Positions 251 through 4,361 are shown, numbered from the stretch's first letter. The stretch is 4,505 nt of DNA from a virus (IMGVR_UViG_2740892439_000011), one strand, 5' to 3'. The notes: a model not told the origin generated them from the sequence alone. Translations and numbers: made by a program.

Positions 251-368
251 TGCTGCGGGTGCTTGAGGCTGTCTGCCTCGGGCATGAACACCAAAGGCAG
301 ATAGAGAAAAGCCCCAGTTAACATTACGCGTCCGGCAAGACGCTTAACATTAATCTGAGGCCACATCT

Positions 369-617
369 ATGCTTTGCATACGTAGATTAGCCTCTTACCG
401 ACCAAAAGGTCAAGGAGAAGCAGGCTATGAAGCAGCAAAAGGCGATGTTAATCACCCTGATCGTCATCTGTTTAACCGTTATAGTGACGGTACTGGTAAC
501 GAGGAAAGACCTCTGCGAGGTACGAATCCGAACCGACCAGACGGAGGTCGCTGTCTTCACAGCTTACGAACTTGGGGAGTAAGAGGACCAGCGGGGAGAA
601 ATCCCCGCAACCTCTGA
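369..617 (+). CDS. mok: mok-like overlapping reading frame (modulator of killing) spanning hok in another frame
   Basis: 82-codon ORF starting at ATG 369 with GAGG 8 nt upstream (357-360); begins 58 nt upstream of hok and overlaps all of it in a different frame, as mok does in hok/sok loci. The protein sequence itself is uninformative; the call rests on arrangement. Confidence 0.35.
   Translation: MLCIRRLASYRPKGQGEAGYEAAKGDVNHPDRHLFNRYSDGTGNEERPLRGTNPNRPDGGRCLHSLRTWGVRGPAGRNPRNL
384..413 (-). promoter_or_regulatory. sok: Candidate antisense (sok-like) promoter
   Basis: On the minus strand: TTGACC (complement of 408-413), 18-nt spacer, TAATCT (complement of 384-389). A transcript from about 377 running leftward would be complementary to the mok SD and start codon (357-371). 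A palindromic hairpin GCGTC-CGGCAA-GACGC (328-343) lies downstream on that strand but has no U-tract. Confidence 0.2.
427..582 (+). CDS. hok: Hok-family type I toxin (host-killing small membrane protein), closest in my recollection to HokD/Gef
   Basis: ATG 427 to TAA 580-582, 51 aa, missed by the ORF track because of its size. Translation: MKQQKAMLITLIVICLTVIVTVLVTRKDLCEVRIRTDQTEVAVFTAYELGE. Hydrophobic N-terminal helix followed by the conserved Hok motif (TRKDLCEVRIR...EVAVF...AYE). AGGAG SD at 413-417, 9 nt upstream. Confidence 0.8.
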   Translation: MKQQKAMLITLIVICLTVIVTVLVTRKDLCEVRIRTDQTEVAVFTAYELGE

Positions 618-1045: not shown

Positions 1046-1644
1046 ATGGCGCATATACAACTGGTCAAACAAACTTCTTCTGGTTTACTTCTCCCGGCGA
1101 CGCCGGAGAGTTGCGATTTTCTGCATCAAATCAAAATAGGTGAGTGGATACACGCAGACTTTAAGCGTGTGCGTAACTACGCATTCCACAAGCGTTTTTT
1201 CAAACTCCTGCAACTGGGATTCGATTACTGGACTCCGGTCGGTGGGGCGATCACGCCTCGCGAACGAGAACTGCTGTCTGGTTTCGTTGATTACCTGTGC
1301 GAATCAGTTGGTCGGGAACACACGCCAGCCTGAGTGATGCCGCAGAGCAATACCTTAACACCGTTGCGACTCGTAGAACCCGGGATACGGCGTTGCTAAA
1401 GTCGTTTGAGGCTTTCCGCGAGTGGGTAACCATTCAGGCCGGATTTTACACCGAGCATATTTATCCGGACGGTAGCCGTGGGCGTCGGGCAAAATCCATC
1501 GCTTTTGCGAATATGGACGAAGTCGAGTTTCAGCAGGTTTATAAATCTGTACTGAATGTGCTGTGGAACTGGATTCTGTTCCGTAAATTCTCCTCTCAGG
1601 AGGAAGTTGAAAATGTGGCCGCACAACTACTGGAGTTTGCGTAA
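1046..1644 (+). pseudogene. DUF1367-like prophage protein (recalled as YdfU-like), interrupted by a frameshift near 1310-1333
   Basis: Frame-2 ORF 1046..1333 (MAHIQLVKQTSSGLLLPATPESCDF...) stops at TGA 1331-1333. The continuation (…SLSDAAEQYLNTVATRRTRDTALLKSFEAFREW… to TAA 1642-1644) is open in frame 1 from 1297. Together they are the size of one gene, and the second half ends in a TAATG overlap with the next gene. No slippery heptamer at the junction. Confidence 0.5.
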
Positions 1645-2473: not shown

Positions 2474-2556
2474 TTTCTTACGTATAAACTGCTTCAATTT
2501 TGCTATGCTTCGCAAAGCTGTATCGCGAGGCGAACCAAGCGCATGAACTTTACCAG

Positions 2557-2585
2557 AACCCGCCATTGAGCGGGTTTTGTTGTTT
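2557..2585 (+). terminator. Rho-independent terminator, probably tR'
   Basis: AACCCGC (2557-2563), loop CATTGA, GCGGGTT (2570-2576), continuing into TTTTGTTGTTT (to 2585). Lies 84 nt after the Q stop and before the tRNAs. Confidence 0.6.
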
Positions 2586-2886: not shown

Positions 2887-2961
<75 letters not shown>

Positions 2962-2970
2962 GCATTTGAA

Positions 2971-2982
2971 ATAAGTCTTATT
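2971..2982. repeat. Copy 1 of exact 12-mer ATAAGTCTTATT (inverted-repeat arms ATAAG/CTTAT)
   Basis: Exact match to 3484-3495, read directly from the sequence; sits immediately after the tRNA-Gly 3' end. Confidence 0.5.
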
Positions 2983-3236
2983 GTATTGCAGCACTGGCGT
3001 ATTTTTATTACGTGGGAGCAGGTTGTTTCGAAAAAGTATTCTGTTCTCTGGCTATGATTTGAGGCCAGGTGTAGCCTCAGTGCTGATTTTTTTACGGCAG
3101 CAGAATGGTGCATTATCGGTGGAGATTTTGTATTTCCTGGCAGGGCCGGTGATGTGCCATTCCGATGTTGTAAACATCGCTAAAAATGACATTGAGATTA
3201 ATCATATACTAAGCAAAACCTGGAAATACATCCTTT

Positions 3237-3262
3237 ACCGCCTCCACCGGGCGGTTTTTTTT
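3237..3262 (+). terminator. Strong rho-independent terminator
   Basis: CCGCC (3238-3242), loop TCCACCG, GGCGG (3250-3254), followed by eight T (3255-3262). Confidence 0.75.
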
Positions 3263-3483
3263 ATTCTGAACCCTAAAAAAAGAAACACGGACACTGATAA
3301 TGCCCGTGTGGCAATGCCATGTAAGTTAGCGATGAATATGGCGCAAAAAAAAGCGCGGCCGTCGGATTAACGCCGCGGGACAAAGTCCATGAAGACTCAT
3401 AAGTATTGGCCCCCTTCTGGGGACATGTTCATACTACTAAGCTTCAGAAGTGGTTTAAATCATCAAATTAACCTTAATTTTCG

Positions 3484-3495
3484 ATAAGTCTTATT
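3484..3495. repeat. Copy 2 of exact 12-mer ATAAGTCTTATT
   Basis: Exact match to 2971-2982; lies about 150 nt upstream of the holin start. Confidence 0.5.
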
Positions 3496-3587
3496 TCATT
3501 TCTTTGCGCCACATCTGGCGCGCATCAAATAACGCCACGCAAAGGGCATCTGCGGATGCCGGTGCTTTTGACGGGGTGTTTTTTACG

Positions 3588-3611
3588 GGCCGCTGGTGGC
3601 CATTTTTTGTT
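3588..3611 (+). terminator. Weak terminator-like hairpin just upstream of the holin
   Basis: GGCC (3588-3591), loop GCTGGT, GGCC (3598-3601), then A and TTTTTTGTTT (3603-3611). Short stem, so low confidence. Confidence 0.3.
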
Positions 3612-3648
3612 TCCATTACACAGCGCCCGCATCTGCGAGGTGGGGGTT

Positions 3649-3864
3649 ATGAAATCCATGGATAAGTTAACAACGGGTGTCGCCTATGGCACCTCCGCAG
3701 GCAGTGCTGGCTACTGGTTTTTACAGTTGCTCGATAGAGTAACTCCGTCACAGTGGGCTGCAATCGGTGTGCTGGGTAGTCTGGTTTTTGGCCTGCTGAC
3801 GTACCTGACAAACCTTTATTTCAAGATTAAAGAAGATAAGCGCAAGGCTGCGAGAGGTGAATAA
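3649..3864 (+). CDS. S: Class II pinholin/antiholin, S21-like, with dual start (71- and 68-residue forms)
   Basis: [74 protein letters not shown] at 3649 and second in-frame ATG at 3658 (Met-Lys-Ser-Met dual-start motif); GAGGTGGGGG SD at 3637-3646; two transmembrane segments, the first Gly/Ala-rich; charged C-terminus. Recalled as very close to phage 21 S. The track ORF from 3556 is an untranslated in-frame extension. Confidence 0.9.
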
Positions 3865-4361
3865 TGCCTCCATCATTACGAAAAGCCGTTGCTGCTGCTA
3901 TTGGTGGCGGAGCAATTGCTATAGCATCGGTGTTAATCACTGGCCCAAGTGGTAACGATGGTCTGGAAGGTGTCAGCTACATACCATACAAAGATATTGT
4001 TGGTGTATGGACTGTATGTCACGGGCATACAGGAAAAGACATCATGCTCGGTAAAACGTATACCAAAGCAGAATGCAAAGCACTCTTGAATAAAGACCTT
4101 GCCACTGTCGCCAGACAAATTAACCCGTACATCAAAGTCGATATACCGGAAACAACGCGCGGCGCTCTTTACTCATTCGTTTACAACGTGGGTGCTGGCA
4201 ATTTCAGAACATCGACGCTTCTTCGCAAAATAAACCAGGGCGATATCAAAGGCGCATGTGATCAGCTACGTCGCTGGACATATGCTGGCGGTAAGCAATG
4301 GAAAGGTCTCATGACTCGTCGTGAGATTGAGCGTGAAATCTGTTTGTGGGGTCAGCAATGA
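3864..4361 (+). CDS. R: SAR endolysin (T4-lysozyme-like muramidase, GH24) with N-terminal signal-anchor-release domain
   Basis: 165 aa. N-terminal weakly hydrophobic Gly/Ala-rich segment [20 protein letters not shown]; catalytic triad positions E35, D44, T50 present by my residue count; ATG 3864 overlaps the holin stop (TAATG). Recalled as near-identical to phage 21 R. Confidence 0.95.

Follow-up and report, generated by a model that had tools for sequence, protein, structure and literature searches.

Location of the segment and loci compared

The window analysed here is a stretch of 4,505 nucleotides of viral DNA (IMGVR_UViG_2740892439_000011), and this study deals with its positions 2962–3648, a 687-bp segment between the end of a transfer RNA gene, tRNA-Gly, and the start of the holin gene essD. 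Both boundaries were rechecked and agree with an initial annotation of the same DNA, in which the tRNA-Gly end had been placed at 2961 and the essD start at 3649, and in which the segment had been regarded as one undescribed non-coding element. Because loci that are 99.4–99.7% identical over the 687 bp sit between ttcA and trkG, the source was assigned to a Rac-type lambdoid prophage; strains RM10740 and ETEC1703 are examples with 99.7% identity. Near matches to the segment are present in 381 of 5426 complete Escherichia coli genomes, and 66 of the 381 cover at least 80% of it. Carriers of the RNA elements described below are Rac-type and related prophages of commensal, livestock and enterotoxigenic E. 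coli (ETEC) strains. That the slot between Q and the holin gene serves as a cargo site, as had been proposed, is borne out by phage phiP27, in which stx2e lies after the tRNAs and before the same pre-holin element.

For comparison, strain M15, strain Nord58, phage vB_EcoS-683R6, the SerU-LTIIb prophage, phiP27 and an Actinobacillus phage were used. A scan of IMG/VR with a 20-mer of the pre-holin element gave at least 120 contigs and two further scans about 100 more; roughly 250 related loci were gathered. An 18-mer scan of genome contigs beyond Escherichia yielded mostly chance matches in unrelated phyla, the relevant matches being those in Escherichia and Shigella, and a plasmid collection gave trivial or partial matches only. 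Structures, conservation, covariation, modularity and promoter conservation were computed directly, while in vivo termination at a paralogous site in E. coli K-12 was taken from published Term-seq data.

In the 68 loci carrying tRNA-Gly, the spacer between this gene and the pre-holin element falls into three size classes: 600–619 nt, which is the window's type, 701–711 nt with a longer middle part, and 410–420 nt, in which positions 3267–3493 are swapped for about 31 nt and both flanks are kept. Since 3267–3493 is replaced en bloc in the shortest class, it is a cassette. The segment is a mosaic of three independently assorting modules and not the single element first proposed: the trailer of the tRNA transcript, the cassette, and the pre-holin element.

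Hairpins, terminators and coding potential

The segment holds 15 perfect hairpins with a stem of at least 6 bp, part of them overlapping pairings of T-runs with A-runs, against 2.9 ± 2.2 in dinucleotide shuffles (0 of 500 shuffles reached 15). Between 2400 and 3900, six terminator-like sites were found where 1.7 ± 1.3 are expected, and there are five terminator-like signals on the plus strand. Fold energies relative to shuffles gave z = −4.06 for plus-strand 2962–3265 and z = −3.11 for minus-strand 3270–3426. A G+C-rich hairpin followed by a U-tract, as in Rho-independent terminators, occurs at 3237–3262 and 3587–3608 on the plus strand and at 3309–3274 and 3377–3345 on the minus strand; the last of these, which has a 12-nt loop, escaped the terminator scan and was identified from the sequence. 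All six hairpins quoted in the initial annotation are present, with GCGCCA-CATC-TGGCGC located at 3506–3521 instead of 3505–3520. The largest conserved structure, a 34-bp hairpin at 3091–3174, was absent from its list.

Existing genome annotation raises the alternative that the segment encodes small proteins. In RefSeq genomes with the 99.4–99.7% identity given above, the annotation pipeline PGAP places coding sequences (CDSs) at 3080–3370 on the plus strand (WP_001578250.1, 'hypothetical protein') and at 3491–3616 on the minus strand (WP_001298832.1, 41 amino acids). Neither has a Pfam match. The search covered six open reading frames (ORFs) and gave nothing at or above the curated cut-off; five were without any match at E ≤ 1, and a 66-amino-acid minus-strand ORF had one chance-level match (E 0.12, 12.3 bits against a cut-off of 24). 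In the long ORF, the variable alignment columns are spread evenly over the codon positions (20/17/20, of 35 each) with no third-position excess, and the extent of the frame differs widely among relatives. The PGAP CDSs either extend from one module into another or include indels of 5 and 6 nt among relatives: the ORF at 3080–3370 passes two such module limits as well as the conserved RNA hairpin and a strong terminator, and the 41-amino-acid ORF spans both indels and takes its start codon from essD-specific sequence missing in most copies of the element. We regard small proteins from this segment as highly improbable, and the RefSeq 'hypothetical protein' CDSs are very probably spurious. With no conserved ORF, and with hairpins and terminators far in excess of chance, the earlier description of the segment as non-coding and structured holds.

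Plus-strand trailer of the tRNA transcript

Downstream of tRNA-Gly, the following features were found:

2989–3086, plus strand: domain A1 of the trailer, a four-way junction with closing helix 2989–2996/3078–3085, followed by U7 (3087–3093); from the minimum free energy fold
3091–3174, plus strand: domain A2 of the trailer, the imperfect 34-bp hairpin, rich in G·U pairs; from folding and comparison
3175–3236, plus strand: AU-rich linker, mostly unpaired, preceding the terminator; variable middle part
3237–3262, plus strand: intrinsic terminator closing the tRNA/trailer transcript; from the terminator scan

The RNAalifold consensus of domain A1 (15 variants) has 42 pairs, and many of these are invariant G·U pairs, which fit the plus strand only. 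Its closing helix GCACTG/CAGTGC is kept even in relatives with a replaced interior. The hairpin TGAGGC/GCCTCA at 3060–3079, which had been quoted for this region, exists in the sequence but is dropped by comparative folding in favour of an overlapping helix, 3050–3056/3070–3076. In domain A2, 97.4% of cells are paired across 20 distinct variants, compared with 36–51% with slid partners. Changes are one-sided in 16 pairs and proceed via G·U intermediates, so that the hairpin can be attributed to a plus-strand RNA only. The terminator at 3237–3262 was rightly called strong: its stem CCGCC/GGCGG is invariant in all relatives, and in all three spacer architectures stem and T-run (T7–9) together are near-invariant while the loop varies.

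The middle part is about 64 nt long in the window and about 150 nt in other prophages. The longer version, in which about 90 nt are added downstream of the 34-bp hairpin and ahead of the plus-strand terminator, shares CGGGAGGCACCCG with EcOnc27 of E. coli Sakai and resembles PasD; the window's middle part looks like a deletion derivative of it. Sites of the longer version are KU052038.1 1471–1664 and 3389–3560, and in two further relatives 3715–3975 (L005) and 3952–4122 (L158). A CyaR-like match at 3192–3261 (plus strand; 23.6 bits, E 0.08 with only 711 nt searched) takes in the AU-rich linker and the terminator; it stays below the gathering score of 47 bits and is probably driven by the terminator.

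The trailer follows the last tRNA and runs up to the terminator of the operon. The same position is occupied by 3′ETS-leuZ (3′ETS, 3′ external transcribed spacer), an RNA of about 50 nt from the glyW-cysT-leuZ operon. The trailer differs from it by its length of about 300 nt and its two large structured domains, and release of a small RNA (sRNA) is putative here. In view of the conserved structure, the earlier suggestion of a functional tRNA-trailer RNA is plausible, and the trailer may be considered a candidate.

Minus-strand cassette and predicted small RNA

The second module comprises the following features:

3267–3493, minus strand: cassette of 227 bp, present or absent as a unit
3431–3459, minus strand: predicted sigma-70-type promoter with −35 TTTAAA (3454–3459), 17-bp spacer and −10 TAGTAT (reverse complement of 3431–3436)
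about 3426–3345, minus strand: predicted small RNA of about 82 nt; from covariation, covariance model, promoter and U-tract
3409–3424, minus strand: 5′ hairpin of the sRNA, followed by an unpaired stretch
3378–3388, minus strand: sRNA hairpin GGAC-UUU-GUCC
3354–3377, minus strand: terminator hairpin of the sRNA with a conserved 10-nt loop, then U8 (3345–3352)
3274–3340, minus strand: second, degenerate unit with a small hairpin GGCAUUGCC, a terminator hairpin at 3285–3309 and a U-rich run at 3274–3284 (UUUCUUUUUUU); from terminator scan and fold

The length of about 82 nt is counted from the conserved −10 element to the end of the U-tract, with a predicted start. Across 39 unique variants, the −35 sequence TTTAAAC is kept in 36 and carries single substitutions in the other three, and the −10 element follows TAnnnT in 39 of 39 (TAGTAT, TAATAT, TATGAT, TATACT). 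In the three helices of the sRNA, 91.7% of cells are paired over 25 distinct variants, compared with 40–54% with slid partners; both sides change in 7 pairs, and the covariation score was reached by 0 of 500 shuffles. RNAalifold recovers the same three helices, and a run of at least four T follows the terminator hairpin in 23 of the 25 variants. Our own covariance model of the minus-strand RNA (R1) scores 99 bits on the window copy. The second unit gave a weak match to R1 (13.4 bits, E 0.39), so that the RNA seems to be partly duplicated there in its 3′ half; the terminator stem of the unit has compensatory variants (ACACGG/CCGTGT versus CACGAG/CTCGTG).

These data bear on the model of the initial annotation, in which the main product would be a plus-strand sRNA from the tRNA 3′ trailer ending at 3262 and the other hairpins would belong to the same element. 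In its favour, the plus-strand trailer has strong and conserved structure, an AU-rich unpaired stretch leads into its conserved terminator, and 3′ETS-leuZ provides a precedent. However, the hairpins 3285–3309 and 3354–3377, which this model takes as plus-strand structures, stand beyond the terminator at 3262 with their T-runs on the other strand, which makes them minus-strand terminators, and they sit in a cassette that varies independently of the trailer. A trailer sRNA would fit the first module and leave the second and third unexplained. We therefore find the model, taken as an account of the whole segment, rather unlikely, and the best sRNA candidate is located on the opposite strand, at about 3426–3345.

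Two side observations concern the distribution of the cassette. In the SerU-LTIIb prophage record (KU052038.1), tRNA, spacer and holin module occur twice in tandem (1122–2031 and 3028–3743), and the second copy is without the minus-strand cassette. Positions 67972–68061 of the 90-kb Salmonella plasmid CP074597.1 match 3305–3392, from the second minus-strand hairpin through the first terminator, with 77% identity, a similarity which hints that the cassette may also move outside Escherichia.

Paralog downstream of yodB

In 5353 of 5426 E. coli genomes, the interval from yodB to serU contains a site similar to blocks 3347–3390 and 3452–3493, and with sensitive settings the similarity spans 3345–3493, exactly promoter and RNA. 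The K-12 paralog of 3345–3427 (minus strand) was placed from sequence alone at MG1655 2,043,091–2,043,181 (plus strand), 193 nt downstream of yodB, where model R1 scores 70 bits (E 3e-13) and the MG1655 RefSeq entry has no annotation. The predicted promoter of this copy reads TTTAAA-N17-TATGAT. A literature search for an sRNA between yodB and serU found none.

In the Term-seq study of Adams et al. 2021 (PMC7815308), two lists contain an 'orphan' RNA 3′ end, meaning one assigned to no annotated gene, at MG1655 2,043,181 (plus strand; flank ...GGCCGCGTTCCTTTTTT/GAC). This end coincides with the U-tract of the paralog, a position that had been predicted before the table was checked. The hairpin therefore terminates transcription in vivo, in the orientation of the window's minus strand; the 3′ end is that of the K-12 paralog of 3377–3345 and not of the window's own copies. 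The site is a candidate for a core-genome sRNA or for a long 3′ untranslated region (UTR) of yodB. All copies of the family have the promoter, the hairpin GGAC-UUU-GUCC and a terminator whose loop, UUAAUCCGAC, is conserved, while the 5′ hairpin and the unpaired stretch differ.

Terminators before the holin gene

The third module lies directly upstream of essD:

3506–3521, plus strand: hairpin GCGCCA-CATC-TGGCGC, with compensatory variants GCGTC/GACGC and GCGCT/AGCGC in relatives
3531–3584, plus strand: pre-holin terminator 1, with helix P1 (3531–3536/3575–3580) around an extended GGCAUC/GAUGCC hairpin (3545–3560) and a U-run at 3579–3584
3587–3608, plus strand: pre-holin terminator 2, GGGCC-loop-GGCC(C) followed by T6; from the terminator scan

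The widely conserved core, AUAAC(R)CC...U6, consists of helix P1, the extended hairpin with its U-run, and the terminator GGGCC-loop-GGCCC-U6; the hairpin at 3506–3521 is outside it. In the pre-holin element, 97.4% of cells are paired over 35 variants, compared with 48–59% with slid partners, and four pairs change on both sides. One invariant U·G pair means that the element fits the plus strand only. Only a few bases separate the core from the ribosome-binding site in two unrelated holin families, and both phiP27, where it follows stx2e, and an Actinobacillus phage carry it. Terminator 2 keeps its stem, varies in its loop and is always directly 5′ of the holin start in more than 200 IMG/VR contigs; its distance to the Shine–Dalgarno sequence is about 25 nt for essD and 8–10 nt in the other holin family.

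An alternative is that the segment contains only terminators and recombination scars, that is, insulation of the lysis genes, cargo junctions and leftovers such as the 3′ UTR of a former gene, with no RNA that is functional by itself. In many contigs an upstream ORF ends at a TAA inside GAATAACACC, the start of the pre-holin core, and the core is therefore the 3′ UTR of that cassette together with tandem terminators. The mosaic character of the region, the absence of the cassette 3267–3493 from many prophages, which can evidently dispense with it, and the five plus-strand terminator-like signals fit the same alternative. However, a bare terminator needs neither a conserved promoter, nor a conserved 10-nt loop, nor a conserved second hairpin, nor a 5′ hairpin with compensatory changes. 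Furthermore, nearly all E. coli keep the unit of promoter and RNA (about 150 bp) whole in their core genome, and the 34-bp hairpin and the four-way junction far exceed what termination needs. In our judgement, terminators and scars as the sole content of the segment are improbable.

Comparison with known prophage RNAs

Tree et al. 2014 (PMC4104026) described convergent sRNA genes at the site following PR′, the promoter subject to antitermination by Q: Sp5 of E. coli Sakai has EcOnc27 and AsxR downstream of stx2B, and seven other Sakai prophages are built likewise. We confirmed the convergent layout of EcOnc27 and AsxR in the Sakai sequence. The pairs of enterohaemorrhagic E. coli (EHEC) O157, with EcOnc27 on the late strand and AsxR, AgvB or EcOnc03 opposite to it, occupy the same cargo site after Q/PR′ (in Sp5 after phage tRNAs) and have the same layout as the window: the terminator of a late-strand RNA is faced by an opposite-strand sRNA with its own promoter and Rho-independent terminator. 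The RNAs themselves differ. AgvB, AsxR and EcOnc03 are 51–60 nt long with a variable 5′ end and a conserved 42-nt 3′ end, whereas the RNA predicted here has about 82 nt, a 5′ hairpin and a conserved terminator loop. These families (RF02702, RF02703) gave no Rfam match at E ≤ 1 in the window or at E ≤ 10 in 2950–3660, and BLAST gave chance matches only; conversely, model R1 did not match AsxR when run against Sakai Sp5. A resemblance by eye of the motif CATGGCATTGCC to CATGCAATTGCC of AsxR could not be substantiated. Likewise, the CA-rich stretch 3515–3548 before the hairpin 3545–3560 was considered as an AgvB-like mimic of GcvB targets and rejected, as its duplex energy was no better than that of shuffles (0.76 and 0.32; AgvB control 0.033).

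PasA (85 and 236 nt, major and minor forms with tandem terminators) and PasC (79 nt) are known from enteropathogenic E. coli (EPEC) E2348/69 (Pearl Mizrahi et al. 2021, PMC8550237, table S6; Zhu, Shabalina and Storz 2026, preprint 10.64898/2026.05.13.724894). They are 79–85 nt long, and their genes immediately precede the holin/lysozyme operon on the strand not used by the late genes; the match to the window RNA is one of layout only, and the tandem terminators of PasA resemble the two minus-strand terminators of the window. The promoter sequence differs, BLAST and model R1 gave no significant match to PasA or PasC, and the Pas RNAs are enriched in pathogenic lineages, in contrast to the window family with its paralog in nearly all E. 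coli. PasD, EcOnc13, EcOnc27 and STnc100 (RF02076), RNAs of about 170–250 nt, are comparable to the trailer in being structured late-strand RNAs that end at a terminator facing an opposite-strand sRNA; the window is without the middle part bearing CGGGAGGCACCCG, and its RNA is fused to a tRNA operon as a trailer. STnc100 had no match at E ≤ 10 on the window, and in a related prophage with the longer middle part it reached 21.7 bits against a gathering score of 47.

The homology search against sRNA databases that the initial annotation had called for gave no family at or above threshold: with Rfam, BLAST and our own covariance model this holds for AgvB, AsxR, EcOnc03, PasA–D, STnc100, Esr41 and CyaR. 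None of the known prophage sRNAs searched for was present in the roughly 250 related loci, and the element sequences were not found in searchable paper text. The word 'undescribed' was hence correct in so far as these sequences match no known RNA, but not with regard to the arrangement, since convergent sRNA genes at this prophage position have been published (PMC4104026, PMC8550237). The arrangement is known in general for such prophages, whereas these particular RNAs are uncatalogued and none is in Rfam.

Antitermination of the lambda type lets polymerase modified by Q read through tR′ and downstream terminators of the late operon. Lambda Q systems resemble the window in having several intrinsic terminators between the Q gene and the lysis genes, which agrees with a dependence of lysis-gene expression on terminator-resistant polymerase. 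In the window, the Q-like protein belongs to DUF1133 and its antitermination function is assumed, and a terminator pair within a few bases of the ribosome-binding site of the holin gene is not found in lambda itself.

Proposed function of the region

Taken together, we consider it probable that a lambdoid prophage of the Rac type carries here a compact, non-coding cargo region composed of three modules with a structured trailer, an opposite-strand sRNA gene and terminators guarding the holin gene. In this proposal, the tRNA-Thr/tRNA-Gly transcript would run into the four-way junction and the 34-bp hairpin and stop at 3237–3262, and after excision of the tRNAs the trailer may persist as a stable RNA or act as a processing site. 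Converging from the other side, the cassette would use its own promoter to give the RNA of about 82 nt with two stem-loops and a Rho-independent terminator, and read-through would halt at the second terminator (3309–3274), yielding a longer minor form. This RNA would most likely be made in the lysogen and act by base pairing, possibly with mRNAs of host or phage in trans, or in cis with the fully complementary leader of the late transcript. The two tandem terminators (3531–3608) stand directly before the essD ribosome-binding site, and at least four plus-strand stop signals, the tR′-like terminator included, lie between the Q-like gene and essD. Transcription from the tRNA and cargo promoters would therefore be unable to reach the lysis genes, which would be accessible only to Q-modified, terminator-resistant polymerase. 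We infer expression from this prophage, the start of transcription, any target in trans or in cis, and Q-dependent read-through.

Several points weigh against this proposal. Plus-strand 3494–3648 folds just marginally below shuffles (z = −1.69). In the minus-strand helices, G·U and A·C cells number 23 and 19, partly due to misaligned rows, a wobble count that leaves the strand undecided; the assignment to the minus strand is based on U-tract and promoter and on the 3′ end mapped in K-12. Promoter and transcription start of the minus-strand RNA are predictions from sequence, as is its expression from this prophage, and a long 3′ UTR of yodB, in place of an independent gene, could account for the 3′ end in K-12. 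Moreover, the relatives were gathered by exact-match anchors inside the elements, by which anchor variation is understated, and many of them are closely related prophages, by which shuffle statistics overstate independence.

As a tentative extension, which we hold to be possible though not the more probable outcome, the minus-strand RNA would represent an uncatalogued Escherichia sRNA family. Its core-genome member would be the gene that follows yodB in about 99% of E. coli, for which the orphan 3′ end indicates transcription in K-12; the further members would be the copies between Q and holin in many lambdoid prophages. The prophage copy could then compete with, mimic or re-target the host regulator, and the pre-holin element and the 34-bp hairpin would be RNA elements with a function in controlling the expression of lysis genes, beyond termination.

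AsxR, AgvB and the Pas RNAs are prophage sRNAs from this position that are known to rewire the regulation of their pathogenic E. coli hosts, and a further set of conserved RNA elements is defined here at the same prophage slot. The unannotated paralog in the core genome and the conserved terminator pair before holin genes are of main interest. The former links the prophage RNA to an unannotated E. coli transcript and makes it a possible phage-carried variant of a host sRNA; the latter is a widespread design and bears on how lysis genes remain silent beside constitutively transcribed tRNA and toxin cargo.

Other features of the window

The window as a whole covers the prophage from Q to the lysis genes, and outside the segment it contains the following features:

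257–582, plus strand: hok/sok (Rfam sok, 105 bits)
1046–1644, plus strand: DUF1367 gene, followed by a DUF1364 gene; both downstream of hok/sok and upstream of the Q-like gene
1931–2473: Q-like DUF1133 gene
2554–2585, plus strand: tR′-like intrinsic terminator about 80 nt past the Q-like gene; from the terminator scan
2808–2883: tRNA-Thr
2887–2961: tRNA-Gly
3649–3864: lysis gene essD, followed by the lysis genes rrrD and rzpD

An 11-bp palindrome, ATAAGTCTTAT, occurs twice, at 2971–2981 and 3484–3494 (0.07 expected), and its extended arms jointly resemble attL/attR halves. Integration scars were rejected as an explanation, because the first copy results from a single-nucleotide polymorphism unique to the window, relatives having AAGCCTTAT; the repeat is most likely due to chance.

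By analogy with lambda 6S RNA or StxS, a short RNA from PR′ to tR′ could arise at 2554–2585. The core of the tR′-like hairpin, AACCCGCC...GCGGGTTTT, recurs, as judged by eye, upstream of essD in DLP12 of K-12. Just 5′ of tRNA-Thr, a T-arm-like repeat at 2771–2791 is 71% identical to the T-arm region of this tRNA and is possibly a remnant of a third tRNA; ARAGORN and Rfam called no tRNA in the surrounding plus-strand region 2730–2807. The type I toxin–antitoxin locus of the hok/sok type is complete, with a hokD-like ORF of 51 amino acids at 427–582. The DUF1367 gene is broken into two overlapping ORFs (1046–1333 and 1297–1644), and an intact 600-bp DUF1367 CDS is annotated in a related Rac-type locus that is 99.7% identical over 2962–3648. 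The split gene is probably a frameshift pseudogene or the result of a sequencing error.

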